From sequence record PP445227.1: a DNA stretch of 40,616 nucleotides. The stretch is one strand, 5' to 3'. The position numbers were made by a program, and so were the translations under genes. Under the pieces are notes generated by a model. The model saw only the letters and a list, made by a program, of their open reading frames with translations, had not been told where the DNA came from and did no database searches. Within the stretch, counting starts at the first letter, position 1. Every line of letters starts with the position of its first letter. Positions 9,121 through 40,044 of this stretch are shown one piece after another. Source of the DNA: Escherichia phage EC.W1-9.

Positions 9121-9323
9121 CGTTCAGTCACCAGGCAAAAAAATGCCCGGCGAACCGGGCGAACTGGAAGCAATGAGTTATGCCTTCCGTGGCTGTACTG
9201 GTTTACAGCATGAAGTCATCGCAATGGCGTCCTGCTGTAAAAAGGGCGGTGATAGTCCTTCAAGGGAAACAGTCACCGCCAATCCCCTGGAACTTCTGGC
9301 ATCACGGTCCTTAGGCGTGATTC

Positions 9324-9400
9324 TGGCGTGGCATGCAGGATTCGAACCTGCGACCAACCGCTTAGAAGGCGGTTGCTCTGTCCAACTGAGCTAATGCCAC
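9324..9400 (-). tRNA. tRNA-Arg (anticodon UCU)
   Basis: Reverse complement folds as a cloverleaf: acceptor GTGGCAT/ATGCCAC, D-arm GCTC…GAGC, anticodon stem ACCGC/GCGGT with loop CTTCTAA, T-arm GCAGG-TTCGAAT-CCTGC, discriminator G, encoded CCA; 77 nt. Confidence 0.85.
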
Positions 9401-18734: not shown

Positions 18735-21481
18735 TGCCTGTTGTTCCTACTACATCCGGACGTCAGGTGCAAAGTCGTGGTGTGCAAACCGGTGGTTTTC
18801 AGATCTTCGATGTTCCTCAAGCAGATCAGGTGCTGGCGAATGTCGCAGATCAGTATGCGGTGGCATATGGTGAAGCCAGGCAGAAAGCGAATGTTGCTAT
18901 GGCCCAGGAGGCGTTACTGCAATTTAACCAATTTGCAGATGACCAGATTAACAACCCTGAAAGTGGGCTGATTTCTAAACAGGGTAAAAACGCTCTTGGT
19001 CAGAGTGACGCTGTTATGAAAAATATGCAGGAAAGGGCTCAGGCATTATTAGGCTCAATTCCTGAAAGTGAGGAAAGGAATAAATTATCCTTTCAACTCC
19101 AGCAGTCTATGCAGTCTTATTACAATCAGGCACGTCGATATGAAGTTGGGCAGTTTCAGCAATTCCAAGATCAAACGTATTTGTCAGGAAATGCATTGGC
19201 TGTCACTCAGTCTGCGGGGCTATATAGCGATAACCAAGCATTTGTCGATTTAGCCAAGCAGCGATTTGAATCTATTGATCAATACGCTGATGCGCATGGG
19301 CTTCCTGATGAGTGGCGTGTTCAGCAGAAAACTCAGCTCAAGGAACAAATGGGGCAGCAAGCATGGATAGGAAATATCGCTCAAAAATACAACGAGTTTC
19401 TTCAGGTTAATGGAGAGCCAGGGGATCTTGATGGTGTGAGTCGTGCAATATCACATGGTAATTCATTGGATGCTCGTGGTTTACGTAATAATAACCCTGG
19501 TAATATTGAAGCGAGCAAATCTAACCCGTGGGAAGGTCAGATCGGTAGCGATGGACGTTTTGCAACGTTTGCTACCCCTGAGCATGGAATCCGCGCGTTG
19601 GGTAAAAATATGTTGTCTTACCAGCGTCAAGGCTATGACACCGTTAGCGAGATTGTTAATCGCTATGCTCCGGCTAGTGATGGTAATAATACTGATGCTT
19701 ATATTAGGGCATTGTGTGGTGAGCTTGGTGTTGGGGAGAATGATCAGCTTGATATCTCTAACCCAAAGACACTAGCTGCTTTATGTGCTGGGATTATTAA
19801 ACACGAAAATGGCAGTATGCCTTATAGCACCGAACAGCTTGAAACTGGTATCTCGGCAGCCCTTGGTCTAACTAACCTTGATTCACCTAAGCGTTATACA
19901 GGCAATGCGGCATTTGATGCTATGAGCCCTCAAATGCAAATACAGGCATTGAGGCAGGCTAATGAGCTGAGAAATCAGTACCGCCAGCAGTATGCGGACC
20001 AGCTTAGCACCGTAGTTAAAGATGCATATTCAGCCCTTGATGAAGGATTGAAACCTGAGAAGTTACCTTCTGAGGACGATTTTATCCGGGCCAATGGTCC
20101 GCGCATTGGCGCTATGAAGTGGAAGGATATGCAGGCGCAGATACAATATGGAGGTGTCATTGGTGCCGCTAAAGACCTCACTCCAGAAGGACGACAAGAC
20201 ATTCTTGAACGTTTACGTCCACAGGATCCAAACGCTCCTGGATTTGCAGCTAACCAGCAACGCTGGGAGAAAATGCAGGCCAAATTTAAAGAGATGGATA
20301 GGGAGTGGGAGATTCAGCAGGGAAGAAACAGGTTCGTGTCTTCAATGCAAAATAACTTCCCGCTGGACCCGAACGACAAAAACAATCAGGCAGCGGTAGA
20401 CCGTTATTTCGCGCAGGATATCGCGCCTTCGTTTTCCATATCTGATCCGCAGAGCATCAATACACTGGTCACCGTCACAACTAAAAGCGGCATGATACCA
20501 ACTCAGGTTAAAACAATGCTTAACAGTGGAGCAACATCAAGAGATCCTGCGCTGGTTGTCCCGATGGCAAAATTCTACGGTCAGTTATTCGATAATAATC
20601 CGGCGGCAGCGGCAACACTTGATAAAAGTACGATGGCATTTTACGGCAAGGTTTACGATTATTCCCGCGCTGGCGTGCCGGAGGATAAGGCTGTTGATAT
20701 GGCTTACAGCCAGGTGTTCCAACAGGATGACCGAATGAAACAGATGCTTTCCACTGCCATGCGAGACAAAAAATATGTCGCGGCGAGGGCAACTGCTGCA
20801 CAAAATAACGCCAGCAGTCTGACTTCCTTTGGTTCGTGGTCTCCGGATATTACCGATCCAGGAAAATCAAATGCGGCCTATCAGCGAGATTACCAGACAA
20901 TTTACGATGCTAACTTTGTACAGACAGGTGGCGATGCAGAACAGGCTGAGAAAATGACCAATGCCATGATCAGAACCACCTGGGGAGTTTCTACGGTTAA
21001 TGGCAAAGCAGAGGTTATGAAGTATGCACCTGAGGCATTGTACGGAGTAAATAATGGTGCTGGTAACTGGATACAGGGGCAGTGGGAGCAGGAAAAACGC
21101 GAGCTTAAATCAAAATCCTTTGGCGGTCCTCGCAGTGATACGGACTTAATACTTGTTTCTGATGGCCTTACGGCAAGGGATAGGAGTTATGCTGTTATGG
21201 TTTTACAGCCTGACGCAAACGGAGCGATAGAACCGAGAAATTATATTGGAGAAAATGGTCTCCCTGTTCGTTTCAAGCCGGATCAGCTGACATCTCCAAT
21301 GTACAGGCAAACCATTAAGTTCCAGCAACAGCGTGTTGATGAGGCTAGAGTGCGGAGAGAAGGCAATCCGCTGCCGCAGTTCAGCAATAAAGATGGATAT
21401 ACTCCTCCAGATCTGACCAAACCATTCGGTTATGGTTCAGCCAATTACCTTCCGAGCAATATATACGCAGGGGGCAAATAA
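18734..21481 (+). CDS. Internal core/ejection protein (T7 gp15-like position)
   Basis: 915 aa, coupled starts; contains a conserved-looking block ARGLRNNNPGNIEASKSNPWEGQ…GIRALGKNMLSYQRQGYDTVSEIVNRYAP that may be a cell-wall-directed domain. Confidence 0.5.
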   Translation: MPVVPTTSGRQVQSRGVQTGGFQIFDVPQADQVLANVADQYAVAYGEARQKANVAMAQEALLQFNQFADDQINNPESGLISKQGKNALGQSDAVMKNMQERAQALLGSIPESEERNKLSFQLQQSMQSYYNQARRYEVGQFQQFQDQTYLSGNALAVTQSAGLYSDNQAFVDLAKQRFESIDQYADAHGLPDEWRVQQKTQLKEQMGQQAWIGNIAQKYNEFLQVNGEPGDLDGVSRAISHGNSLDARGLRNNNPGNIEASKSNPWEGQIGSDGRFATFATPEHGIRALGKNMLSYQRQGYDTVSEIVNRYAPASDGNNTDAYIRALCGELGVGENDQLDISNPKTLAALCAGIIKHENGSMPYSTEQLETGISAALGLTNLDSPKRYTGNAAFDAMSPQMQIQALRQANELRNQYRQQYADQLSTVVKDAYSALDEGLKPEKLPSEDDFIRANGPRIGAMKWKDMQAQIQYGGVIGAAKDLTPEGRQDILERLRPQDPNAPGFAANQQRWEKMQAKFKEMDREWEIQQGRNRFVSSMQNNFPLDPNDKNNQAAVDRYFAQDIAPSFSISDPQSINTLVTVTTKSGMIPTQVKTMLNSGATSRDPALVVPMAKFYGQLFDNNPAAAATLDKSTMAFYGKVYDYSRAGVPEDKAVDMAYSQVFQQDDRMKQMLSTAMRDKKYVAARATAAQNNASSLTSFGSWSPDITDPGKSNAAYQRDYQTIYDANFVQTGGDAEQAEKMTNAMIRTTWGVSTVNGKAEVMKYAPEALYGVNNGAGNWIQGQWEQEKRELKSKSFGGPRSDTDLILVSDGLTARDRSYAVMVLQPDANGAIEPRNYIGENGLPVRFKPDQLTSPMYRQTIKFQQQRVDEARVRREGNPLPQFSNKDGYTPPDLTKPFGYGSANYLPSNIYAGGK

Positions 21482-24400
21482 TGCCGATATATGAACAGGA
21501 TCCTAAAGAGTTGCTTGGCGAGGATATTCAGCAAATAGCAGCACCTGATGACAGTAATTTCTATATGGAAACACCTTCTTTGCTTTCTGCTGTGAACCCA
21601 TTTACCAGTGATCAACGCGTTCAAAGGTCTAGACAAGCAGCATTTCGTATAGATAACACGCTGGGTAGCTTTATTGCCAGTGCTCCTTTCAGTCAGTTTG
21701 ACAGGGTTGAAGGATATAACCCATTTGATAACGATGCAGCAGATATTAAAGGCTATGAAGATTTTGCAGATTCGTTTATCAACTCCGGTTCGCATGAAGA
21801 AACAATGGCAATTAAACATCGAATCGATCAGCAGAGAGCTGACATGGAATACAATTCAGGCTTGGGATTTGCTGGTACAGTCTCTTCTGTAGCAATGAGA
21901 TTAGCAGATCCATTCAATGCGATTTCTATGTTTATTCCGTTCGGCGCTGTCGTTCGTGGCGGTCGTATTGCAGAAACAGCCGGACGTTTTGCTTTAGCCA
22001 ATGCTGCTGGCAGTGTTGCTTCAGAGGCCGCATTGCAGGCCACTCAGGAAGCTCGCTCACCGATGGAGAGCGTATCGAACGTTGTTGTTGATGCTCTCGT
22101 TGGTGGGATCCTTGGTGCTGGTGCACAGCTACTTGCTGGACCTAGCGCGCGCGAGGCAGTGGTTAACTCAGTAGGTAATCATTTGCGAGGTATGGATTCT
22201 CCTCAAAGCATTGGTGCAGCTCAGGTTTTCAATACCACACTCGATCAGGAACAGCTTGCTGGACTTGGACTTGCTAACAAAACGTTGAGTGTCACTCCTG
22301 CTGGCCGCTTGGCGCAATCACCATCTCTTGTTTCCCGTCAGATTAACCAGCAGCTTGCCGAAAATAACTATTTCTTCGCCAAAAATGATGAGGGGTTGGC
22401 TACGTTTACGGCAGTCGAGACTAAGATTAAGCAATACGACGCCATGCTTTATAAGCAGATGGAAGCTACTCGTGATGCTTACCAGCAGTACAGCAAATCT
22501 GTCAGCGCCCGCGGCGTGAAGAGGATGAACTTTATTGATTTCAATGAAGCTGTTGGCATGGCTATGCGCCGTGGTGATCAGAGTGATATTCCTGAGGTTT
22601 CACAAGCAGCCGCCAGAATCCGCCCCATTTTTGAGACCACAAAAGCCCGTATGCAGGAATTGGGGATCCTTCCTGAGGATATCGATGTCGTGACGGCGAA
22701 GAGTTATCTTCCCCGCATTTATAAGTTCGATAAGATACTTTCCGACCGCACTGAATTCAGAGGGCGAATTGCCAACTGGATACAAGGGATTAGTGCCAAA
22801 GGTGCTGACAAAGCAGGTCAGCGAATTGAAAAGATAAATTCATTGCTAAAAACTGCAGAGGAATCAGCACCGCGCGCTGATGCTCTCGCTAGTGAAATCG
22901 CTGAAGCGGAGAAATGGTCTGGTAAAAAAATTCTACTCATGGAAGAACTGGATAAACGAAATAAGCTTATATCTCAGGAGACTGACACACAGGCGCGTCT
23001 TACAAGAATAGAAAAAGAGTTGGCCGAGACTTCATCAGAAAAACTTCAGGCAAGAATGATGAAAGAAAGCTCTGACCTTAAAACACGCCTTGATGATATA
23101 GCGCAGGCAAAGAGTGAGCTTCCTGTCTATCAGCGCCATATGGAGTTGCTGGATAATCCACGGAAATATCGTTCTGAGCTTCGCCGACTGCAAAAACGGG
23201 CAAATTCAACCACAAGGCTGAATGCAAGCCGCGAGCGAGCACTGAAGCAGATGGAGCCTCTATCCCGAGAGGAAGCAGAGGACGCTGCTGACGAGATCGT
23301 GAATAAAATAATAGGCGCACCTTCCGGGCTTGTACCAGCCGATATTATCCCAGAGAGACTCGTTGGTCGGGCTGGTTTCACTAAAAGCCGAACGCTGCTT
23401 ATTCCTGATGAGCGTATAGAAGATTTTCTTGAATCAGATGTTAACTACATCATGGAAAGTTATCTCCGGCAGGTGGCACCAGAAATTGAGCTGACTGCGC
23501 AGTTTGGCCGTAAAGATATGGGGGAGCAAATCCGTCAGGTTAGTGAGGAATATACCCGGCTAATAAAAGAGGCTAAAACACCTAAACGACGTGCAGCTCT
23601 TGAGAAGCAACGGGAGGCTGATATTAGGGATATTACGGCTATGCGTGACCGACTGCTTGGTACTTACGGCGCACCTCAAGATCCACGCAGTTTCTTTGTT
23701 CGTGCCGGGCGAGTTGCTAGGAATATTAACTTCCTCCGTTTGCTTGGTGGAATGACCGTCTCCGCTGCAACTGATCTGATGCGACCGATGATGCAGCATG
23801 GCCTGAGAAAATCTCTCGGACCAATGGTAAGCATGCTTAAAAATATGGACTCAGTGAAAATTGCAACCAGGGATTTGCGAGAAATGGCAGTTGGGCTTGA
23901 TTATGTCCTGTCTACGCGCACAAAGGCTATAGCGGATCTTACTGACCCCTATAGCCGGAGAAGCGCCGCTGAGCGAGGTCTGAACTGGATGACGCAGAAA
24001 TTCGGTAACTGGACGCTGATGAATCAGTGGAACAGCGCACTTAAATCATGGTCTGGGATGATAGTGCAGTCGAGGATACTTGACGCGGCTCGCCAAGTTT
24101 CTGCTGGTGGCACGCTCTCCAAAAGTGAAATGCGGAAGATGGCACAGGTCGGCATCAATGAAGATGTTCTGCGCCGAATCGGGGAGCAATTCGGGAAGCA
24201 CGGAGAGGATATGGACGGGCTGTTAACCGGGCATAGTCATCTGTGGGATGACCGTTTCGCTAGAGAGATTTTCCAGTCTGCAGTGCTGAAAGATGTAGAC
24301 TCAGTGATTGTAACGCCTGGCGTAGGTGATACACCGCTGTTTTTTAGTAAAGAAGGCTGGAAGATGATCACGCAGTTCAAAACGTTTATCTTCGCACAGC

Positions 24401-24870
24401 ATAACAGGGTGCTAGTATCTGGTATCCAGCAGGGCGATGCTGCATTCTATCTTGGTGCGCTTGGCACGATTGCGCTTGGCTCAATGGTCTATATGATGAA
24501 ACAGAAGTTAAGCGGTCGCGATATCGACTACAGCTGGAATAACCTTGTGAAAGAGGGGATCGACCGGGGCGGAATGCTTGGCTGGCTCTCTGAGCCGCTG
24601 AATACCGTTGAGAACATAAGCGGCGGTAGGTTTGGTCTTGGCGCGATGTTTGGTGCGCCTCCGGTATCAAGGTTTCAGAGTCGTAATGCTATTGGTGCTT
24701 TACTTGGTCCTACCTTTGATCTTGGCGGTGATGCCGCGACGGTTGCAAATGGTGTACTTAACGGAGAATTTGACAGCCAGCAAACCCACGCTGTCCGTAA
24801 AATGCTACCTTTTCAGAATCTGTGGGCGATATCACCATTACTAAATAAAGTTGAAGAGCAGATGAAATAG
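21481..24870 (+). CDS. Large internal core/ejection protein (T7 gp16-like position)
   Basis: 1129 aa, last gene of the ejection block, long coiled-coil centre. Confidence 0.5.
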   Translation: MPIYEQDPKELLGEDIQQIAAPDDSNFYMETPSLLSAVNPFTSDQRVQRSRQAAFRIDNTLGSFIASAPFSQFDRVEGYNPFDNDAADIKGYEDFADSFINSGSHEETMAIKHRIDQQRADMEYNSGLGFAGTVSSVAMRLADPFNAISMFIPFGAVVRGGRIAETAGRFALANAAGSVASEAALQATQEARSPMESVSNVVVDALVGGILGAGAQLLAGPSAREAVVNSVGNHLRGMDSPQSIGAAQVFNTTLDQEQLAGLGLANKTLSVTPAGRLAQSPSLVSRQINQQLAENNYFFAKNDEGLATFTAVETKIKQYDAMLYKQMEATRDAYQQYSKSVSARGVKRMNFIDFNEAVGMAMRRGDQSDIPEVSQAAARIRPIFETTKARMQELGILPEDIDVVTAKSYLPRIYKFDKILSDRTEFRGRIANWIQGISAKGADKAGQRIEKINSLLKTAEESAPRADALASEIAEAEKWSGKKILLMEELDKRNKLISQETDTQARLTRIEKELAETSSEKLQARMMKESSDLKTRLDDIAQAKSELPVYQRHMELLDNPRKYRSELRRLQKRANSTTRLNASRERALKQMEPLSREEAEDAADEIVNKIIGAPSGLVPADIIPERLVGRAGFTKSRTLLIPDERIEDFLESDVNYIMESYLRQVAPEIELTAQFGRKDMGEQIRQVSEEYTRLIKEAKTPKRRAALEKQREADIRDITAMRDRLLGTYGAPQDPRSFFVRAGRVARNINFLRLLGGMTVSAATDLMRPMMQHGLRKSLGPMVSMLKNMDSVKIATRDLREMAVGLDYVLSTRTKAIADLTDPYSRRSAAERGLNWMTQKFGNWTLMNQWNSALKSWSGMIVQSRILDAARQVSAGGTLSKSEMRKMAQVGINEDVLRRIGEQFGKHGEDMDGLLTGHSHLWDDRFAREIFQSAVLKDVDSVIVTPGVGDTPLFFSKEGWKMITQFKTFIFAQHNRVLVSGIQQGDAAFYLGALGTIALGSMVYMMKQKLSGRDIDYSWNNLVKEGIDRGGMLGWLSEPLNTVENISGGRFGLGAMFGAPPVSRFQSRNAIGALLGPTFDLGGDAATVANGVLNGEFDSQQTHAVRKMLPFQNLWAISPLLNKVEEQMK

Positions 24871-24871
24871 G

Positions 24872-25723
24872 ATGAAAAAAATAAATTTGTTTTTTGGCAT
24901 AGTGCTTTCAATAGTCTCTGTAAATCCTACAGCTGCCAGTTCATTGCAATGCAATAAGGATAACTTTGATGCATGCAAAACGTGCGAACAATTATCAAAG
25001 GCTATCGACTTAAAAGAACCTAATCGTGGCGATTACTATAGAGGGGCTTTATGGAATGGGCTTTACGCCTCTTATGTAATTAATTGCCCTGTGGTTGCAG
25101 AGAAGTTACTGAGCCATGGTGCTATACCATCATATGGCGGATATATGGGGTCTATGGGGGCGGTTCTGACAGGAAAATGGCCTCATAACAATGAATCAAT
25201 AAATCTTTCATGGGCAGATTTGCTTATAAAACATGGATTTGATGTTAATAGGCATACGGGGAATTATAAATCAGCTACTGAAGTATGGGCTATAGATAAA
25301 AAACAGATTGAATATAAGTCAGTTTTTGACAAGTTAATTCAATCCAGCGAAGTAAAACCACTCGATCCTTCAAGAAATTTAGAATGGTGTGCGTCTGAAG
25401 GGTATCGCTCAGTTGTCGTTTATTCCCTTAACTCATGTATAGAAAATGCTATAAAACGTTTGGATGACGGTGTTTCTTCAGCGTCTGATATTTCATCAGC
25501 AGCCGTAAATTCCTGTACTAGCGATGTAGAAAATTTCAATAAGCATTTGGCATGCAAAGCAGCTGTTAAAGAAAACTCTGATAAAGAGAGAAGCAACGTT
25601 TACCAGTTATTAACCAGTGATAGTCAAATGAATAAAAATGTTATTGATATGCTGAAGGAAAGAAATATTGAAACGGTTCTTGAATTTAGAGCTGAAAATC
25701 GATCAGCGAAAACTGCACAGTGA
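24872..25723 (+). CDS. Secreted cysteine-rich accessory protein
   Basis: N-terminal signal peptide (MKKINLFFGIVLSIVSVNPTAAS), many Cys, visibly AT-rich; followed by a terminator hairpin. Confidence 0.55.
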   Translation: MKKINLFFGIVLSIVSVNPTAASSLQCNKDNFDACKTCEQLSKAIDLKEPNRGDYYRGALWNGLYASYVINCPVVAEKLLSHGAIPSYGGYMGSMGAVLTGKWPHNNESINLSWADLLIKHGFDVNRHTGNYKSATEVWAIDKKQIEYKSVFDKLIQSSEVKPLDPSRNLEWCASEGYRSVVVYSLNSCIENAIKRLDDGVSSASDISSAAVNSCTSDVENFNKHLACKAAVKENSDKERSNVYQLLTSDSQMNKNVIDMLKERNIETVLEFRAENRSAKTAQ

Positions 25724-25730
25724 TCAAACA

Positions 25731-25755
25731 GGCCGCTTTCGCGGCCTTGTTTTTA
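25731..25755 (+). terminator. Rho-independent terminator (GGCCGC-tttc-GCGGCC + T-run)
   Basis: Hairpin then TTGTTTTTA; identical 16-nt hairpin recurs at 28984. Confidence 0.6.
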
Positions 25756-25914
25756 ACGAATGCCACCGCCGCCAGGGCGGGAATCCGCAGAACGCCCACC
25801 GCAGCGGGAGCCGTCAGCGGCAGTATCGCTGTCGTGCTGACAACGACCGGCAAAGGCCTGAGTTGAAGCTACCAGAGACAACAAAACGAACAGTGCAGCA
25901 AATGCTTTTTTCAT
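25753..25914 (-). CDS. Small secreted peptide (53 aa)
   Basis: Translation MKKAFAALFVLLSLVASTQAFA|GRCQHDSDTAADGSRCGGRSADSRPGGGGIR; signal peptide with an AFA-G cleavage-like site; weak SD. Confidence 0.4.
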   Translation of the reverse strand: MKKAFAALFVLLSLVASTQAFAGRCQHDSDTAADGSRCGGRSADSRPGGGGIR

Positions 25915-25984
25915 TGTGAAATTTCCATCTATAAGCCACCTCAATGTGGCGTCAATGAGTGTAGCACTGACTTTTGTTTCGTCC

Positions 25985-26006
25985 ACAAAAAAGCCCGCAG
26001 CGCGGG
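25985..26006 (-). terminator. Rho-independent terminator for the minus-strand operon
   Basis: On the minus strand GCCCGC-gct-GCGGGC followed by TTTTTTGT. Confidence 0.6.
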
Positions 26007-26007
26007 C

Positions 26008-26556
26008 TTACTTTTCTTCAGGTTTGTTGTCTTCAGATTTCTTCTTGATGCTTGGTTTTTGTCTAAGAACGAAAATACCAGCCACTGCAACAACTGTACC
26101 GATCACTGTGCCAGCTAGAACTTCATGACCTGTTAAACCTAATAATGTTGCACAAGCTACTGTAAAAATAGTTGCACTCAGGCCAAACCACTGCCCACGT
26201 TTATCTCTATTAATAGCCCCGTCAAGTGCCTTTTCCTCCATTTTCTGGCGGTGAGCAAACTCCTTCTCCGTCAGCTGGAAGATGCGTTCGGGGGCATCAG
26301 GTAAAATATCCTGATACCCGCGAAGCAGATAGGGGGGAGGAAGCGGACCCTGAAACGCATGGTGAGCGACAACTATCTCCTGAATTTCAGGGCGATCAAG
26401 AACTCTTGTGAAGGCATCTGGGTGTTGAATGATCTCGTTACTTAGCCCTTCCTCAACTTCCTCGAACTCAGTTTCTTCGTTATCACTTGGTTGCCCAATA
26501 GATTTTTGCATATTTGTCGAAGGACATTCCTTTAGCTTCTGGTTTTCCTCTTGCAT
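26008..26556 (-). CDS. Membrane protein (acidic N-terminal domain, two C-terminal TM helices)
   Basis: 182-aa ORF; C-terminal WFGLSATIFTVACATLLGL…TVIGTVVAVAGIFVL hydrophobic segments; sequence style reminiscent of DUF2335 proteins (recalled, uncertain). Confidence 0.5.
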   Translation of the reverse strand: MQEENQKLKECPSTNMQKSIGQPSDNEETEFEEVEEGLSNEIIQHPDAFTRVLDRPEIQEIVVAHHAFQGPLPPPYLLRGYQDILPDAPERIFQLTEKEFAHRQKMEEKALDGAINRDKRGQWFGLSATIFTVACATLLGLTGHEVLAGTVIGTVVAVAGIFVLRQKPSIKKKSEDNKPEEK

Positions 26557-26809
26557 TTGAGTTTTTCCCTGTCACTATTGCCCATTTTCCGCCAGCAGGC
26601 GCTGCAATTTTTTTTCCGTTCTTTACTATATATTCAGCATAAACACGATTTTCTGACCGTCTGAGATCGTCTCCGACCATATTCATGTCTCTTGATATAA
26701 CTTTGACGACAGAGTCTCGGTTTAAAGCCTTGGCATAGTTGGAGCCAGGAACGATACCCAAAGGGGTGCCAGACTCTATAGCCAGCTCCTTGACATATCT
26801 TCTGCTCAT
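26483..26809 (-). CDS. Hypothetical protein, first gene of a minus-strand accessory operon
   Basis: ATG at 26809 with GAGGT 4 nt upstream; palindromic site in its promoter region. Confidence 0.5.
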   Translation of the reverse strand: MSRRYVKELAIESGTPLGIVPGSNYAKALNRDSVVKVISRDMNMVGDDLRRSENRVYAEYIVKNGKKIAAPAGGKWAIVTGKNSNARGKPEAKGMSFDKYAKIYWATK

Positions 26810-26830
26810 ATGAACCTCAACCAATCGACT

Positions 26831-26845
26831 TTACCAATCGGGTAA
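26831..26845. promoter_or_regulatory. Palindromic site TTACC-N5-GGTAA
   Basis: TTACCaatcgGGTAAT about 22 bp upstream of the 26809 start. Confidence 0.5.
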
Positions 26846-26930
26846 TTTTAAACATGAGTATAATGCTTTTAACTGCAACGAGTGTAAACAATTATTGATA
26901 ATTGTAGGCACATCCCTGTGCCGCCGCCCG

Positions 26931-27623
26931 TCAGAAGAACCCTGCTTTGTCGTTGATGTACTCCGCGTGCGTCTGGATATCACGCAGGCATTTGCTCACA
27001 CCGACGATGTAGCAGAACATGGTGGTCAACTCCGCCGCCGCGCCCGATACGTCGTGCCCGTCTTCCTGTAACTGGTTTAGCAGATTCATCAGCAGTGAGT
27101 TCTCCGTCAGGCCGAGAACACCAGACGGCGAATGAATCAGGCTGCGGTAGCCGGGCTTCAGTGGGGCGCTGTAGGTTTTGTTCTCTACCTTCATTGCCTG
27201 CATCACTGCTGATGCTGTGGCGTTGGCTACCTGGTCGGCAACCATCTTTATGCGTTCTTCCTGCGGGAGCGAGTTTTTAATGTAACTTCCGGTGCGGCGG
27301 ATCTGAGGAAGAACCTCACCTGTAACCCATTCAAGAAATCTGAATGCTCTCGTTCCCTCAGTCATTGCCTCTTTGCAACGCAGAATAAGGATGTAGAGAC
27401 CTGATTCTGAAACGATGGATAGTTCTTGTATTCCACCAGGGGTCTGTATTGAATACAGCCCCTTTTTGTTCCAGCCTTTTTTATCAAGTTTTCTCGCTTG
27501 TGTAACATCAATATTCAAAGCATTGCACACATCTTTGGTGACAAACCAAGGTTCTCCGTCAATCATGAACATACGGATCTGGCAGGATGACTCAAAGGAA
27601 AAGATGGAAGGTTTGGTATTCAT
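26931..27623 (-). CDS. Antirepressor (Bro-N / KilA-N-type N-terminal domain)
   Basis: N-terminus FSFESSCQIRMFMIDGEPWFVTKDVCNALNI…GLYSIQTPGGIQELSIVSESGLYILI matches the Bro-N antirepressor fold pattern; ATG at 27623 after AAAGGTGA. Confidence 0.7.
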   Translation of the reverse strand: MNTKPSIFSFESSCQIRMFMIDGEPWFVTKDVCNALNIDVTQARKLDKKGWNKKGLYSIQTPGGIQELSIVSESGLYILILRCKEAMTEGTRAFRFLEWVTGEVLPQIRRTGSYIKNSLPQEERIKMVADQVANATASAVMQAMKVENKTYSAPLKPGYRSLIHSPSGVLGLTENSLLMNLLNQLQEDGHDVSGAAAELTTMFCYIVGVSKCLRDIQTHAEYINDKAGFF

Positions 27624-27889
27624 AGCGATCACCTTTGTAGTTAGGTTAATCACCACCGCTGAGACCAATCAGATGGTGGTGAACTGTGCAGAGTTGGTCT
27701 TACCGGCTACAAAGGAACCCGGCGCACCTTTCGGTGCCCCCACACAGCCCACCATAGAATAGGTGCGCTTTACACATAAAAAAACCGCTTATGCGGCATA
27801 TGTGCCTCTGTAGTAATCCGGGAGACCAATCCCGGCACTGGATTTTGCCAGTGCCCGATTACTATGGCACAAGAGGAGTGCAATGTAAA

Positions 27890-27904
27890 TTTACCGAAAA
27901 GGTA
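27890..27904. promoter_or_regulatory. Palindromic site TTACC-N5-GGTAA
   Basis: TTACCgaaaaGGTAAT; TATATGGTTTGAT follows about 35 bp downstream. Confidence 0.5.
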
Positions 27905-28066
27905 ATAATAAATGCATAACTCACGTTATTTCAACCCTATATGGTTTGATTTATCCCATTTCAGAAAATACCTGCCTATTTTTTTGCCAGTATGCGTATA
28001 CTTTCGATAGAATGTTTACCCTAGAGGTAGTTGGGGGTGCCCGTGAACACGAAGAGAGCTACAGTA

Positions 28067-28486
28067 ATGCAGCATTTGAGGAAATCAGAAAAAAATAAAG
28101 ACCATGAAATATTGAGTAAGGCCATTGTTCGGGCTTCCAATAATACTGTTATACCTCATGCTGAAGAGTCTGGACAGAAATTTCTTATTCGGTATTTCAC
28201 TGAAAATAGTGCAGTTGAGGAGATTTTAAAACATCAGGGAGGGGAATTTAAATGTGGAAAACTGGCAGATTATGTTCGTCGTGAAACGTCTGAACAAGAA
28301 GTATATTATGCTGATATTAATCATAAGTCAGGTGTGAAAATTGTAATAGGCTATTACACAACTCCCAAAAATGTTATGCATGAGGTCCCAAAGATGTCCG
28401 TCGAGAAATCTCATGCAATCTCGCGCAGGATGTTTGCACGCACTGCCGAAGATATGGCTCAGGAGCTCTACGACGATGCTGAATAA
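28067..28486 (+). CDS. Hypothetical protein, first gene of a two-gene accessory cassette
   Basis: ATG at 28067 after GAAGAGAG; 139 aa; overlaps the next gene by 11 nt. Confidence 0.5.
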   Translation: MQHLRKSEKNKDHEILSKAIVRASNNTVIPHAEESGQKFLIRYFTENSAVEEILKHQGGEFKCGKLADYVRRETSEQEVYYADINHKSGVKIVIGYYTTPKNVMHEVPKMSVEKSHAISRRMFARTAEDMAQELYDDAE

Positions 28487-28982
28487 ATTCCAGGGGTTGG
28501 TTCACCCTGGAATTTTTGGGAAGGACCCTGAGCTAATACCTATCAAAAACGCGTTCATAGATCACTGGCGCTACGGTCATCATAAGGATTTCGGAAAGGA
28601 CACTCTGTTTCGGGATCCACCGAAAGAAATGCTGGAATATCACATACGCCACGTTCACGTAAACATCGGAAACTATACTGACAAGTTTGGTGAGAGCGGT
28701 ACGGAACAATGCTGGAAAAACTGGGCGTCTGGGAAGAAAGACAAGACCACTAACAAGCATAAAAAGATCCCAACCAGTGACGTGTATGTGATTTATCTGG
28801 TCACATCTGAACGCCATGCCTTCCTTCTGGATTATTGGGATGAACCAGCACATAAGACAGTAGAAATTGACGAGCAGAAGCAAAAATTAGTTGTCGAGTG
28901 TGACAGAATTTTGCGGCTGAAAAAGTTAGAATCCATGCCGCGCGATGCTAGTTTGTGGGACCCAGAATTTTACGACTGTTAA
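28476..28982 (+). CDS. Hypothetical protein, possible toxin-like component (weak YafO-like motifs)
   Basis: 168 aa; motifs HVHVN and AFLLDYWDEPAHK resemble YafO-family toxin blocks as recalled from memory; followed by a terminator. Confidence 0.4.
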   Translation: MLNKFQGLVHPGIFGKDPELIPIKNAFIDHWRYGHHKDFGKDTLFRDPPKEMLEYHIRHVHVNIGNYTDKFGESGTEQCWKNWASGKKDKTTNKHKKIPTSDVYVIYLVTSERHAFLLDYWDEPAHKTVEIDEQKQKLVVECDRILRLKKLESMPRDASLWDPEFYDC

Positions 28983-28983
28983 T

Positions 28984-29008
28984 GGCCGCTTTCGCGGCCT
29001 TTTCTTTA
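28984..29008 (+). terminator. Rho-independent terminator (GGCCGC-tttc-GCGGCC + TTTTCTTTA)
   Basis: Same 16-nt hairpin as at 25731. Confidence 0.6.
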
Positions 29009-29263
29009 TGTGGTTTGTTTTCGTAATTGTTCGGCACAATAGTCGAGATGTGTTTGCAGATCCTGCATAGACATCTGTGAGCTGGTGACGTAGTTAATCA
29101 GTGCAGTCAGTTCGGCAAGTGGGCCATCGACATTAAATCCATCCTTATCGAGATCCCGGAGTAATTTCATCAAGTGCGATCCCTCCACCAGTGACCTGAC
29201 GCCTCCCGGCGTGTGAATCCTTTCGGTAAATCCGTCTTCCAGTGGATAGTGATACTGCTGCAT
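29006..29263 (-). CDS. Small protein paralogous to the antirepressor C-terminal domain
   Basis: ERIHTPGGVRSLVEGSHLMKLLRDLDKDGFNVDGPLAELTALINYV aligns by eye with the C-terminus of the 26931-27623 protein; ATG at 29263 after GGAGAAG. Confidence 0.5.
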   Translation of the reverse strand: MQQYHYPLEDGFTERIHTPGGVRSLVEGSHLMKLLRDLDKDGFNVDGPLAELTALINYVTSSQMSMQDLQTHLDYCAEQLRKQTT

Positions 29264-29339
29264 CTTATCTTCTCCATGCAATAACTGTATGTTTATACAG
29301 TAACAAATAATTTGTTTGCTATCCAGCACGTTTTGCAAA

Positions 29340-29458: not shown

Positions 29459-31333
29459 ATGACGGTCTCAACCGAAGTTGACCACAACGAATACACCGGT
29501 AACGGCGTTACGACATCGTTTCCGTATACTTTTCGAATTTTCAGAAAATCAGACCTGGTTGTTCAGGTGTCTGATCTGAACGGAAACGTAACAGAATTGG
29601 TCCTGGATACCGGTTATACGGTAACTGGGGCGGGCACTTATAGTGGCGGTTCTGTGGTTCTTCCGTCTCCGCTTGCTACTGGATGGCGAATTACGATAGA
29701 TCGTGTGCTTGATGTAGTGCAGGAGACAGACCTTCGCAATCAGGGAAAATTTTTCCCCGAAGTGCATGAAGATGCCTTTGACTACCTGACGATGCTGATC
29801 CAGCAATGTTTTGGGTGGTTCAGACGTGCATTGATGAAGCCCTCTCTGCTTGCAAAATATTACGATGCAAAGCAAAACAGAATTTCTAACCTTGCAGATC
29901 CATCACTTGAGCAGGATGCTGTAAATAATCGCTCAATGCGTAATTATGTCGATGCTGCAATCGCCGGGGTTGTTGGTGGTTTTGGTTGGTTTATTCAGTA
30001 TGGTTCTGGGGCTGTGTACCGAACGTTCCAGGATAAGATGAGAGACACCATTAGTGTTCGTGATTTTGGTGCAAAAGGAGACGGCATAACAGATGATACT
30101 GTAGCAATTCAAAATGCTATTAATGCAGTACCAGAAGGGGCTATACTTGGATTTTATGGTGGTGAATTTGTTTTTGATAAGGTTGAATTGTTTAAGCCAA
30201 TAACATTAGTTGGTGATGCAACGTTAATTCACAACGGATTTAGAATAAAATCTAGCAGAATCCGATCACTTTTATCTGGCGTTCAGAAATGCAAGGATTA
30301 CTCCGAGTCTTCAAGAGCATTTTATTGCTATGCAAATGAAGACCAAAGAGATTATGACGATATTCAGATTTTATTTAATAGATTTGAAGGTTTCTTTTAC
30401 TCTACGGCATTTGTTGCAAAAAACTATTATTTGGAGAATGACCCTAATTCAAGAATTGTCAAAAACACAAAAGTAATAGGGTGTACATCAGTTGCTCCTG
30501 ATTCTGTAAATGCCGGTCATTTTCAACATATAGGCGTTACAAATGCTGAAACATCACATAACTCAACTTATGGCGGACAAAATGCAACATCATACAACTT
30601 CATTAACCAGAATGGATTTGTAAGGATTATAGGAAATTATGACCATAACAATAGCTATGGTTCATGTGAGCTTGAGAACTCAATGGTGAGTAACTCAGTC
30701 ATATCAGGTAATACGTTTTCGTCATATTTATGGGTGGATGATACAAGTAATGTTACTATTTCTGGAAATACAGTTTCATCAAGGATCAAAGTAACATCGC
30801 AAACTGACGATGTTCATAATATAACCATATCAGCAAATACCACAAAACGGATTACTATAGAGCAATTTGGAGAATCTCCAACAGGTCTGGTATATGGTGC
30901 ATTAATTTCCTGCAACACTATTACTGGCGACAGTGATGGAAGTTCAGACATTTTATGTACGTCACTTGTTACAGGTGAAATTTCATCAAATTATTGTCAT
31001 GGATCAGAAAAAAATATATCAATTGTCCGCCTGGATTCTTCTGATATAACTGTTAGAAATAATAAAGGAAACAAAGGATTACTTACAATAAGTAACGATG
31101 GTGGAAGGATAATTGAATATGGCAATGATTCTATGGTTCTGTCTGGAAGCATAGATAGCAGACATATACATAATTTATTACATCCAGACACATCGTATTT
31201 AGACCTACCGGGGAAATATCTGCACGGAACTAAATATACTGGCAGTATCCCCCCGGTTCCACAGGAATTGTATCACTTCAAATACCATCAGGGGCAAGCC
31301 TTGTTTTCAGGGGTGTTTCTATATGGGTTCTAA
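29459..31333 (+). CDS. Tailspike: T7 gp17-like N-terminal adaptor domain plus right-handed beta-helix (pectate-lyase-like) domain; frame broken near the 3' end
   Basis: N-terminus EYTGNGVTTSFPYTFRIFRKSDLVV resembles the gp17 N-terminal domain; RDFGAKGDGITDDTVAIQNAI is a beta-helix hallmark; the frame ends 26 codons after a C6 run while a second frame continues. Confidence 0.7.
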   Translation: MTVSTEVDHNEYTGNGVTTSFPYTFRIFRKSDLVVQVSDLNGNVTELVLDTGYTVTGAGTYSGGSVVLPSPLATGWRITIDRVLDVVQETDLRNQGKFFPEVHEDAFDYLTMLIQQCFGWFRRALMKPSLLAKYYDAKQNRISNLADPSLEQDAVNNRSMRNYVDAAIAGVVGGFGWFIQYGSGAVYRTFQDKMRDTISVRDFGAKGDGITDDTVAIQNAINAVPEGAILGFYGGEFVFDKVELFKPITLVGDATLIHNGFRIKSSRIRSLLSGVQKCKDYSESSRAFYCYANEDQRDYDDIQILFNRFEGFFYSTAFVAKNYYLENDPNSRIVKNTKVIGCTSVAPDSVNAGHFQHIGVTNAETSHNSTYGGQNATSYNFINQNGFVRIIGNYDHNNSYGSCELENSMVSNSVISGNTFSSYLWVDDTSNVTISGNTVSSRIKVTSQTDDVHNITISANTTKRITIEQFGESPTGLVYGALISCNTITGDSDGSSDILCTSLVTGEISSNYCHGSEKNISIVRLDSSDITVRNNKGNKGLLTISNDGGRIIEYGNDSMVLSGSIDSRHIHNLLHPDTSYLDLPGKYLHGTKYTGSIPPVPQELYHFKYHQGQALFSGVFLYGF

Positions 31334-33983: not shown

Positions 33984-34155
33984 CATGGCATTTTTCATGG
34001 TACTGATTTCCGGTGACGGTATATAAAACGGTACGAGAAAAATTCATATTTGGAAAAATGTTATCACTCAATTGGTTATGGTATCCGTAAATAATTGAGT
34101 GGGAATGATTAACAGCTAACTCATAGCAAATCATTCCTATTCAGATGCCAACTCA

Positions 34156-34300: not shown

Positions 34301-35551
34301 GTGCTTACCGATACAAAATTAAAAAACCTCAAGCCGCAGGACAAACTGTACAAGGTCTCCGATCGTGACGGGCTGTATGTAGCTGTGCTTACGTCAGGCA
34401 CGGTCTCATTTCGTTATGACTACCGTATCAACGGTCGCCGCGAAACACTGGTAATCGGGCAGTATGGGCGTGACGGTATCAGCCTGGCAGAAGCGCGGGA
34501 AGAACTGATTGCTGCAAAGAAGCTGCTTAAAGCAGGCCAGTCACCGGCTGCGGCTAAACGTGACGGTATCAAAAAGATTCGTGGTGCCGAAACGTTTGCG
34601 GTACATACCGACAGTTATATGAAACACGTCATCCTGGCTGAAAGTACCCGCGCAATGAAGCAGGCAGTGATCGACCGTGACATACTTCCGGTTCTTGGCA
34701 ACAAAATGATGGCTGAAATTACCACATCGATGGTTCGTGATTTGTGTGACCGGATTGTCGAACGCGGTGGCCGGGCAACAGCAGTGCAGGCCAGGGAGAT
34801 CATCAGCAGCGTATACCGTCACGCCAATGACCGTGGTCATGGTTTGTTTAATCCTGCGGCTGACATTAAGCCTTCGTCTATCGCCATATTTAAACCACGA
34901 GAGCGAACACTGACACCAGAAGAAATTGGCCTGTTCTTCCGCACGTTGGATGCCATTGGTGCTATGGGCACTATGAAAATGGCTTTAAAACTGGTGCTTA
35001 TCACTATGGTTCGTAAGGGCGAATTCACCAATGCAACGTGGGATGAAATAGATTTTAAAAAATGGACATGGACAATTCCTTCAGACCGCATGAAGGGAAG
35101 CCGGGCGCATGTTATTTACCTGCCTAAACAGGCTCAGGATATATTGGTCGGGTTGCAGATGTGCGCTGGTGGAAGTGAATATCTGGTTCCTGGTCGTTAC
35201 AATTTCCGGAAGCCATTATCTAATGCCGCGCTGAACTCTCTGATCGACAGAACGGTGAAAATAATAAATGAAGATGGTGAGCATATTCAGGATTTCACCG
35301 TACACGATATGCGCCGTACAGCCAGTACGTTGTTGCATGAGGCTGGTTATCCTTCAGACTGGATTGAAAAGGCTCTGGCACATGAGCAGAAAGGTGTGCG
35401 CGCCGTATATAACAAAGCGGAATACGCCAGACAGCGCGCCTACATGTTGCAGCAGTGGGCCGATATGATAGATTCCTGGATTAACGGGGAGCATACGGAT
35501 CTGATTCCGTTCTCCCCGTCGAAGTTTGAGAAGTGGATGGCGAGGGAATAA
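34301..35551 (+). CDS. int: Tyrosine integrase
   Basis: N-terminus (M)LTDTKLKNLKP…DGLYVAV typical of the DUF4102-type integrase arm domain; C-terminal catalytic region with HDMRRT and AHEQ…VRAVYNKAEY (Tyr) signatures. Confidence 0.85.
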   Translation: MLTDTKLKNLKPQDKLYKVSDRDGLYVAVLTSGTVSFRYDYRINGRRETLVIGQYGRDGISLAEAREELIAAKKLLKAGQSPAAAKRDGIKKIRGAETFAVHTDSYMKHVILAESTRAMKQAVIDRDILPVLGNKMMAEITTSMVRDLCDRIVERGGRATAVQAREIISSVYRHANDRGHGLFNPAADIKPSSIAIFKPRERTLTPEEIGLFFRTLDAIGAMGTMKMALKLVLITMVRKGEFTNATWDEIDFKKWTWTIPSDRMKGSRAHVIYLPKQAQDILVGLQMCAGGSEYLVPGRYNFRKPLSNAALNSLIDRTVKIINEDGEHIQDFTVHDMRRTASTLLHEAGYPSDWIEKALAHEQKGVRAVYNKAEYARQRAYMLQQWADMIDSWINGEHTDLIPFSPSKFEKWMARE

Positions 35552-39459: not shown

Positions 39460-40044
39460 TTATTGTTTGTTTTTTTCGTTCTGGTTGATGACAAATTCAA
39501 TGTAACTTTCGATCTTTGCTTTCTCGGTTTCGGGTAACAATGCGTAGCGCGAGCGATCATAGTTGATGGTCGCAGGGTCGTGCGGGTGAATCAGTAATTC
39601 ATAGCCGTGACGCCCGAATGCGGATGCAACATTCTCCAGGGTGGAAATGGAAACGCTGACCTCATTGTTTAACAGGCGGCTGATTGTCACCTGGGCTACG
39701 CCGGATGCGCGGTGAAGTTTTCCCTGTGTTGAAAGGTCGCGGCTTTCGCTCATCCAGCGTTCCAGGTTGTGAGCCGCCAGCTGGCCAATGTCGCTTGGGC
39801 CGACAGGCTGAAAACCTTCCTGAGAAAGCGAGCGATCGATATCAAGCCAGTTACGGGGTTTATTGGCGGCAGCTTCAATTTTTCGCGCAACCTGATCGCC
39901 GATAACCTTCTTACCAAGAGCCCAGCGGTTTACCAGATTTGCCTGAGTTCCAAGTTTTTCAGCCATCCGCGTCTGAACACCATTGAATTCACGGTCGATC
40001 AAGTCGTTGAGATTTTGCCTGCGGACGTCCTGGATACTTTTCAT
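39460..40044 (-). CDS. Repressor-like DNA-binding protein with two HTH-like segments
   Basis: 194 aa; segments LGTQANLVNRWALGKKVIGDQVARKIE and SGVAQVTISRLLNNEVSVSISTLENVASAFG look like XRE-type HTH units; divergent from a Cro-like gene across a triple-site region; no S24 peptidase motif noticed. Confidence 0.5.
   Translation of the reverse strand: MKSIQDVRRQNLNDLIDREFNGVQTRMAEKLGTQANLVNRWALGKKVIGDQVARKIEAAANKPRNWLDIDRSLSQEGFQPVGPSDIGQLAAHNLERWMSESRDLSTQGKLHRASGVAQVTISRLLNNEVSVSISTLENVASAFGRHGYELLIHPHDPATINYDRSRYALLPETEKAKIESYIEFVINQNEKNKQ

Follow-up and report, generated by a model that had tools for sequence, protein, structure and literature searches.

Escherichia phage EC.W1-9 (sequence record PP445227.1; its 40,616 nucleotides (nt) are referred to here as the window) carries a segment of about 4.4 kb (24872-29263) that follows the gene for the last large internal virion protein (21481-24870) and precedes the tailspike gene (from 29459). 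The segment encodes eight proteins, A to H (Table 1). In our preferred reading, to which we give a probability of about 0.7, it is a regulatory and hypervariable region, functionally analogous to the immI regions of phages P22 and P1, that joins a conserved induction circuit to exchangeable, operator-tagged cargo. The circuit would consist of a Bro-N antirepressor gene (E) preceded by two RNAs of the IsrK and C4 families, and of a small gene (H) behind a LexA box. The cargo occupies slots around the antirepressor unit.

A conserved core with exchangeable cargo

The region is a mosaic of a conserved regulatory core and exchangeable cargo, not a single island. The core, which would be the induction machinery of the phage itself, makes up roughly half of it. 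Its G+C content is 44.2%, against 49.6% for the late operon. The cargo is low (37.0% in gene A, 39.4% in gene F, 41.8% in the F-G cassette and 44.1% in the D-C cassette), whereas the core genes E (49.2%) and H (47.7%) lie near the backbone value, so that composition alone already separates the two. A first-pass annotation, made from the sequence alone, had described the whole stretch as AT-rich; this holds for the cargo, but the deviation is modest and uneven, and the Bro-N gene and H match the backbone.

Breakpoints were located by blastn against six relatives and then inspected at the sequence level. Over 4.9 kb around the region, the closest DNA matches are the Uetakeviruses vB_EcoP_ZX5 (ZX5), TL-2011b and phiV10. 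The breakpoints fall at 25728, 25992-26009, 26883-26896, 27911-27915 and 28984-29006, all at hairpins or promoter elements, and two of the resulting slots lie on either side of the antirepressor unit. Slot 3 (26009-26883) runs from a bidirectional terminator to just past the hairpin 3' of the antirepressor gene. In the window it holds the D-C cassette, a DUF2335 protein with a partner of 108 amino acids (aa); alternatives are YafO with a 108-aa protein, YafO with a 59-aa protein, a single 210-aa gene or an empty slot. Slot 5 (27911/27915 to 28984/29006) holds genes F and G in the window, a 242-aa gene in strain PAR and 25 nt only in ZX5 and phiV10. Its left boundary falls between the -10 and -35 elements of the antirepressor-unit promoter. 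Among relatives in IMG/VR, the D-C cassette is found in either slot.

Each cassette consists of a sigma-70 promoter with its own operator palindrome, one or two genes and a hairpin terminator. With their own promoters and terminators, their presence or absence between relatives and their deviant composition, the cassettes have the features of morons. Terminators with a GGCCGC...GCGGCC stem and a TTTC or TCTT loop recur at cassette ends. One of these, the 16-nt GGCCGCTTTCGCGGCC, occurs exactly twice in the window (at 25731 and 28984; 0.02 copies expected, and two matches in none of 100 shuffles), and both copies score as terminator-like. The first-pass annotation had noticed this pair and read it as the mark of similar promoter-gene-terminator modules. 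The modular build and the recurring stem bear this out for the cassettes, but the copy at 25731 is the late-operon terminator, conserved in all relatives, and homology to phiV10, ZX5 and TL-2011b begins there (25728). The duplication is thus an exact copy, specific to this lineage, of a cassette end that recurs. Gene A, which precedes the copy at 25731, had been counted among the independent units. Because its ATG lies 1 nt past the stop codon of the last virion gene and the promoter scan found none of its own, it belongs to the late operon, as the final gene.

Parts of the region occur in 570 of 5426 E. coli genomes, and 27 contain at least 80% of it; the F-G cassette occurs in 58 and the D-C cassette in 72. 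The cargo units vary independently and not as one island. Beyond these phages, a B+C+D module with 88% identity stands at the end of an unrelated myovirus-type prophage of E. coli STEFF_1, beside yfhH (locus L012, 3700-4860). This prophage has an invertible tail-fibre segment, and its copy of the module keeps the operator palindrome together with a variant of terminator 1. The module passes from one type of phage to another.

These results bear on the view, put forward in the first pass, that a single acquired accessory or defence island interrupts the late operon, with autonomous units expressed in the lysogen for immunity, superinfection exclusion and defence. In its favour, the cargo is AT-richer, has promoters and terminators of its own and varies by whole cassettes at what is indeed a hypervariable locus; as cargo for defence or exclusion, a toxin-antitoxin pair and a membrane protein would be typical, and gene B, which has no operator, could be constitutive. 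The position is also that of P22 immI and sieA; the first pass had named it as one where P22-like phages keep immunity and exclusion genes. We nevertheless regard a single island as unlikely. The Bro-N/IsrK/C4 unit and H form a conserved core of backbone composition, three or four cargo units vary independently across the genomes searched, and A belongs to the late operon. The palindrome of the early promoters recurs on the cargo promoters and predicts repression in the lysogen, and PADLOC-DB 2.0, run on all eight proteins, returned no defence system (single match, E = 0.039).

An antirepressor gene behind two structured RNAs

The core unit on the minus strand is ordered promoter, IsrK small RNA (sRNA), C4 antisense RNA and Bro-N antirepressor gene, which starts at 27623. 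The first-pass annotation had placed the open reading frames (ORFs), the Bro-N gene, an ATTACC site, the minus-strand membrane-protein operon and the plus-strand two-gene cassette correctly; its list omitted both RNAs, which are Rfam-level matches, as well as the LexA box and the relationship of the second cassette gene to YafO. The antirepressor and ORF4 of ZX5 are 80% identical, with a single differing position from residue 107 on. Over-expression of ZX5 ORF4 lowers prophage and lysogen counts about 1000-fold (PMC9782041).

The C4 RNA contains b' CCUUUGUAG (27715-27707) and a' AGACCAA (27700-27694). The b' element is perfectly complementary to b2 CUACAAAGG in the antirepressor leader and a' to a2 UUGGUCU at the leader start. 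Target b2 covers the antirepressor's Shine-Dalgarno sequence, 9-17 nt ahead of the AUG. Copies of both targets are held by IsrK, as a1 UUGGUCU (27829-27823) and b1 CUACAGAGG (27813-27805); the Rfam model c4-a1b1 (RF03163) scores 39.9 bits over this region, under its cutoff of 46.7. The pairing was found by an explicit search for complementary stretches, whereas RNAduplex on whole RNAs gave uninformative long pairings.

All 16 relatives examined have both IsrK and C4. An alignment of six relatives shows two types, between which all three copies of a and all three copies of b change in concert. The 16 loci comprise at least six b-types (CUACAAAGG, CUAAAAGG, CUAAGUGG, CUAGUAGG, GUCACAGG and CUAAACGG/CUAAGCGG) and two a-types, which are combined in several ways; every locus preserves the complementarity, with b2 on the Shine-Dalgarno sequence. 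Sequence and three-way covariation thus support the predicted pairing of C4 with the antirepressor leader. From analogy with P1 immI and the Gifsy-1 isrK locus, we infer the direction of regulation by C4 and IsrK. With their many co-varying types, these loci lend themselves to tests of RNA-based heteroimmunity outside P1 and P7.

A 37-aa ORF annotated in the ZX5 leader is not conserved. Weak Rfam matches to Trp-leader and RT-7 in the region are at chance level and were set aside. In two IMG/VR relatives (L031 and L032), H, D, C and B are present and the Bro-N antirepressor is absent, so that the large antirepressor is dispensable. TL-2011b (L002, 2769-3953) and L018 carry an additional P22-type Arc and Ant pair with a sar antisense RNA at this position (Rfam, 44.8 bits against a cutoff of 43). 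The P22-type Ant of TL-2011b ends in the same 80 aa as the Bro-N antirepressor of the window, which suggests that a domain presumed to bind the repressor has been shuffled between proteins.

Gene H and its LexA box

Gene H encodes this C-terminal domain on its own: the protein is 42% identical to residues 149-222 of E (E = 8e-20), and phrog_450, a family annotated as 'unknown function', matches both. Wherever the locus of a relative extends to this position, H is there. The LexA box ahead of it, TACTGTATAAACATACAGTT, matches the consensus at 17 of 20 positions; it is the sole site in the window with 15/20 or more, and a score of 17 was reached in 1 of 300 shuffles. Relatives with an H identity of 83% or more all keep CTGT and ACAG, with variable spacers. 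Two further CTGT-N8-ACAG sequences, at 9193 and 13742, fall below 15/20 and were rejected as LexA boxes.

The Gifsy prophages, 186 and N15 encode small LexA-controlled antirepressors outside the immunity region and have a non-cleavable repressor (PMC3121763). In the window, the 194-aa helix-turn-helix (HTH) repressor matches HTH_3 and HTH_26 only (residues 104-148) among Pfam families, with no profile match to the self-cleavage domain Peptidase_S24. It is 100% identical to ORF21 of ZX5, with 98.5-100% identity among these related phages. When ZX5 ORF21 is over-expressed, there is no free phage and lysis-gene transcription falls by 99.97-99.99% (PMC9782041). Paralogy to the antirepressor and the LexA box make H a candidate SOS-induced antirepressor.

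H might instead be an SOS-induced protein of another kind, such as a DinI-like modulator or a tailspike or assembly factor, with induction proceeding through the Bro-N antirepressor alone or through an unrecognised cleavage of the repressor. That H resembles no characterised LexA-controlled antirepressor, adjoins the tailspike gene and belongs to a family without annotated function would fit. Yet two antirepressors that otherwise differ, in phages with one and the same repressor, have in common a domain homologous to H, H is transcribed divergently from the tailspike gene, and Pfam finds no S24 domain in the repressor. We therefore hold a different role for H to be improbable.

A dispersed operator-like palindrome

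The palindrome TTACC-N5-GGTAA occurs at 17 sites in the window at no more than one mismatch (11 of them exact), against 0.6 expected. Four of the 17 lie in the region, at 26831, 27891, 28016 and 29340; the site at 26831-26845 includes the ATTACC that the first pass had correctly placed upstream of the membrane-protein operon and that is in fact one half of the palindrome. Two palindromes stand in the intergenic region that separates the repressor gene from a divergently transcribed cro-like gene, and one of these falls between the -35 and -10 elements of a rightward promoter. The leftward early promoter has another two, and its -10 AATTAT continues straight into TACC. A recurrent register, in which the last AT of the -10 hexamer is the AT of ATTACC, is found at 1877, 6369, 9730, 26831 (TAAAAT) and 27891 (TATTAT). 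The dispersed palindromes mostly abut -10 hexamers ahead of the replication, terminase, head, integrase and early-left units. The arrangement is a P1-like design with many single operators and not a lambda-like cascade.

In the relatives, a palindrome of its own precedes the first gene of every alternative cassette, and the 5-nt spacer differs between them. Between orthologous sites as well as between unrelated cassettes, the half-sites are invariant and the spacers variable, and the palindrome is kept in D-C cassettes that have diverged to 50-78% protein identity. ATTACC-N5-GGTAAT is presumably the operator of the 194-aa repressor. Because the cargo and Bro-N promoters carry, against their -10 elements, the palindrome that flanks the repressor gene, we infer that repressor binding silences the promoters of the region in the lysogen.

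That the palindromes are bound by Cro or by another phage or host factor, or serve as homology patches for the RecT and PD-(D/E)XK nuclease that the phage encodes, leaving the cargo effectively constitutive, has some appeal in a slot boundary (27911-27915) only 6-10 nt from a palindrome and in the retention of the D-C palindrome in an unrelated prophage, but is quite doubtful given the OR/OL-like positions of the sites flanking the repressor gene, the fixed -10 register of at least six sites, which a recombination role does not explain, cassette boundaries that mostly lie at hairpins and not at palindromes, and half-sites kept across cassettes with only 50-78% protein identity.

The F-G cassette

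F and G form a putative toxin-antitoxin pair of a divergent YafO type, the only recognisable function among the cargo. The product of F has an acidic C-terminus; it has no relatives in Pfam, NCBIfam or PDB and is not YafN-like. YafO-annotated toxins, which fill slot 3 in other genomes, share 47% and 31% identity with the product of G. Twelve of 13 aligned G relatives match Pfam YafO_toxin PF13957 (best E = 8e-6; gp44 of TL-2011b, 26.3 bits against a cutoff of 25). G would be a ribosome-dependent mRNase toxin and F its antitoxin.

Proposed induction circuit

If the region is the immI analogue that we propose, the repressor, in which no cleavage domain is recognised, would be inactivated by antirepressors. 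DNA damage and the SOS response would relieve LexA control of H, and H would bind the repressor. Loss of the repressor would then derepress the palindrome-controlled promoters. Among these, the promoter of the Bro-N antirepressor, with its palindrome fused to the -10, should fire only after the repressor has fallen. C4 would be cut from the transcript that holds its own targets, and pairing of a' and b' with the leader, with b2 over the Shine-Dalgarno sequence, would gate E. The decoys a1 and b1 in IsrK could titrate C4. Once derepressed, the IsrK-C4-antirepressor unit would make the switch irreversible.

The cargo would be silent under the repressor and expressed upon infection or induction. 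Its roles would then belong to the early lytic phase, in exclusion or host shut-off, and not to classical lysogenic conversion. More tentatively, we speculate that the whole is a two-stage switch with an attached arsenal: LexA-triggered H would start induction and the RNA-gated E, with the same repressor-binding domain, would amplify it, with C4/IsrK specificities diversified combinatorially, and the unrelated cargo units, each keeping the phage operator, would be released as a set upon repressor inactivation, coupled to induction or infection. The components are of known kinds (immI and C4, IsrK, LexA-controlled antirepressors, morons, YafO pairs); their combination is new.

Several observations weigh against this interpretation. 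No ORF of at least 10 codons that could correspond to an icd- or orf45-like leader ORF ends near the antirepressor ATG in the window. The candidacy of H comes from paralogy and the LexA box; no similarity of H to Tum, GfoA or AntC was detected, and in more distant relatives ATGT replaces CTGT in one half of the LexA box. The palindrome may be bound by Cro or another factor instead of, or besides, the repressor, and single sites may repress weakly. Gene G itself has no match to PF13957 even at E values up to 10 and none in NCBIfam, and its whole-domain hhalign alignment with YafO of K-12 is weak (E = 0.0012, probability 19%). It is not obvious how a toxin-antitoxin pair would be of benefit if the lysogen keeps it silent. 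A, D and F have no assignable fold or family.

The scheme provides a concrete, testable induction circuit for an epsilon15-type prophage, from LexA through a small antirepressor to an RNA-gated antirepressor. If the cargo is indeed under the phage operator, the common assumption that cassettes at this position are defence genes active in the lysogen would require qualification, and screens for prophage-encoded defence should then include derepressed conditions.

Relation to known systems

The immI region of P1 and P7 comprises the c4 antisense RNA, icd and ant, with promoter P51b under the C1 repressor, which has many dispersed operators. The window resembles it in a C4-family RNA made from the transcript that it is predicted to control, in a' and b' set against a2 and b2 over a ribosome-binding site, in the upstream a1 and b1, and in a promoter with an operator of the main repressor. 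Both have operators dispersed over the genome and specificity types that differ between relatives. Unlike P1 and P7, the window has no icd-like leader ORF, b2 lies on the antirepressor's own Shine-Dalgarno sequence, the antirepressor is of the Bro-N type, and a1 and b1 belong to an IsrK-type sRNA with its own terminator. The host of this system is a podovirus of the epsilon15 group, with at least six b-types and two a-types.

In the Gifsy-1 locus isrK-orf45(STnc1160)-anrP-isrJ of Salmonella, the short IsrK RNA has its own read-through transcript as target, and downstream of IsrK a processed RNA has been observed (PMC4825925). Common to both loci are an IsrK with a leaky terminator, a processed structured RNA, an antirepressor-like gene and complementarity of IsrK to the downstream RNA; the Gifsy-1 locus, too, is implicated in prophage induction. 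The window differs in lacking an orf45 coupling ORF, a match to isrJ and a known AntQ target, and in having a phage operator palindrome on the promoter.

H is comparable to Tum of 186, GfoA, GftA and GfhA of the Gifsy prophages and AntC of N15 as a small protein encoded outside the immunity region behind a LexA box, in a phage with a repressor in which no cleavage domain is found. Sequence comparison detected no similarity of H to these proteins, and H also differs in being paralogous to the C-terminal domain of another, larger antirepressor that the phage encodes.

With P22 immI (mnt-arc-ant and the sar RNA) and sieA, the region shares its place between the last ejection or internal protein gene and the tailspike gene. 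Unlike P22 immI, the window has no Mnt or Arc, and control would lie with the operator of the main repressor, the C4 and IsrK RNAs and LexA.

Classical lambdoid morons are expressed from the repressed prophage. The cassettes are like them in being autonomous units with promoter and hairpin terminator, deviant G+C content and presence or absence in close relatives, whereas each cassette in the window has the phage operator against its -10. The F-G pair, finally, is built like yafN-yafO of E. coli, with two overlapping genes and the antitoxin first, and members of the G clade pass the Pfam YafO_toxin model. G, however, is longer, has an inserted segment containing Cys and Trp and lies below Pfam detection; F is unrelated to YafN (Phd/YefM), and the promoter carries the phage operator.

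Features of the region

The ORFs of the region are the same in the PGAP annotation of E. coli genomes that carry it at 100% identity. Table 1 lists them together with the RNAs, promoters, palindromes and terminators.

Table 1. Genes, RNAs and sequence elements of the region and related features elsewhere in the window (scores are given with the cutoff of the respective model).
Feature	Position	Strand	Remarks
Gene A, 283 aa	24872-25723	+	Putative periplasmic protein; N-terminal signal-peptide-like sequence (by eye); conserved Cys residues
Terminator hairpin 1, GGCCGCTTTCGCGGCC then T-run	25731-25746	+	Late-operon terminator
Gene B, 53-aa peptide	25753-25914	-	Signal sequence (by eye); two-Cys, Gly/Arg-rich mature part; phrog_14503 'membrane associated protein, moron'
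Bidirectional terminator hairpin AAGCCCGCAGCGCGGGCTT	25991-26009		Left boundary of slot 3
Gene C, DUF2335 protein	26008-26556	-	Pfam PF10097, 57.2 bits (cutoff 25); phrog_3996
Gene D, 108-aa basic protein	26483-26809	-	Overlaps C
D-C promoter and presumed operator	26831-26888	-	-10 TAAAAT (26850-26845) fused to palindrome TTACCAATCGGGTAA (26831-26845)
Gene E, Bro-N antirepressor	26931-27623	-	Pfam PF02498, 51.3 bits (cutoff 25.6)
Antirepressor leader with C4 targets	27624-27671	-	a2 UUGGUCU (27668-27662), b2 CUACAAAGG (27640-27632)
C4 antisense RNA	27672-27759	-	Rfam RF01695, 78.6 bits (cutoff 45), full length
IsrK-type sRNA	27778-27854	-	Rfam RF01394, 74.7 bits (cutoff 50); own terminator GCCGCATAAGCGGT+U7
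IsrK-C4-antirepressor promoter	27891-27934	-	-35 TTGAAA, -10 TATTAT; palindrome TTACCGAAAAGGTAA (27891-27905) fused to -10
F-G promoter, TTGCCA-18-TAGAAT	27984-28030	+	Palindrome TTACCCTAGAGGTAG (28016-28030, 1 mismatch) begins 2 nt past -10
Gene F, putative antitoxin	28043-28486	+	147 aa (PGAP start), 139 aa from ATG 28067; phrog_9503
Gene G, 168 aa	28476-28982	+	Start overlaps F stop; PGAP name YafO-family toxin
Terminator hairpin 2, identical to hairpin 1	28984-28999	+	Right boundary of slot 5
Gene H, 85-aa epsilon15 gp19-like protein	29006-29263	-	Stand-alone paralogue of the antirepressor C-terminal domain
LexA box TACTGTATAAACATACAGTT	29283-29302	-	19-38 nt upstream of H ATG; CTGT-N8-ACAG core at 21-36 nt
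Palindrome TTACCCGAAAGGTAA	29340-29354		Between H promoter region and tailspike gene
Palindrome sites outside the region	1815, 1877, 6369, 6387, 9106, 9730, 32310, 34244, 39326, 39388, 40100, 40148, 40485		
tRNA-Arg gene	9324-9400	-	Between terminase and head regions; palindromes either side (9106, 9730)
Integrase gene	34301-35551		
Repressor gene, 194-aa HTH protein	39460-40044	-	

Other cargo proteins

Gene A is confined to prophages of Enterobacterales, and no homologue was found in 50,697 deposited phage genomes. Its predicted model suggests an ankyrin-like N-terminal half and a helical bundle in the C-terminal half, and no informative structural neighbours were found for it. Against PDB sequences, A, D and F gave chance-level matches only, and NCBIfam had no matches to the proteins of the region.

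Gene B is deleted in strain PAR and absent from phiV10, and there is no operator palindrome near it. A sequence TTGACG-16-TATAGA (25955-25928), seen by eye, is only 13 nt from the ATG and is not claimed as its promoter.

The DUF2335 protein encoded by C, the second gene of the D-C cassette, has two C-terminal hydrophobic, transmembrane-like stretches (by eye). DUF2335 is a family without known function, mentioned only in passing in the literature. Distant homologues with 30-38% identity lie just upstream of terminase genes on unrelated phage contigs (L043, 3772-4402; L045, 1300-1912), and each is preceded by a conserved overlapping ORF of 65-67 aa, unlike the D-C arrangement. They gave no functional lead. 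D itself has only seven homologue clusters. Among close relatives it always stands upstream of C, and the pair is present in 27 IMG/VR loci. An AlphaFold2 model of D from four sequences had a predicted local distance difference test (pLDDT) score of 41 and no usable fold. The possibility that D is a shared antitoxin was discarded, as it is unrelated to the 108-aa partner of YafO in the same slot of strain Combat2C1.

Phage identity and context

The window represents a guaA-integrating prophage of E. coli, a Uetakevirus of the epsilon15/phiV10 type, in its circular, excised form. The region is found at 100% identity over its full length in about 20 complete E. coli genomes (for example Ecol_881, ECONIH1 and ST648), and in Ecol_881 the prophage is located at the guaA 3' end. 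The match of the window to this integrated copy stops just past ATTGAGTGGGAATGATT, at about 34094-34110. This sequence is the attP core published for ZX5 and phiV10 (PMC9782041), and the break at it identifies the window as a circularised phage.

Such prophages are present in about one tenth of complete E. coli genomes, including extraintestinal pathogenic E. coli lineages such as IHE3034, avian pathogenic E. coli (APEC) O18 and ST648. Their tailspikes define serotype specificity. In the window, the tailspike gene (29459-31333/31588) has a run of seven C at about 31248-31254, where the otherwise identical Ecol_881 prophage has eight, and the shorter run reduces the ORF to 624 aa instead of 709 aa. 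A frameshift, phase variation or a sequencing error in the homopolymer could account for the difference.

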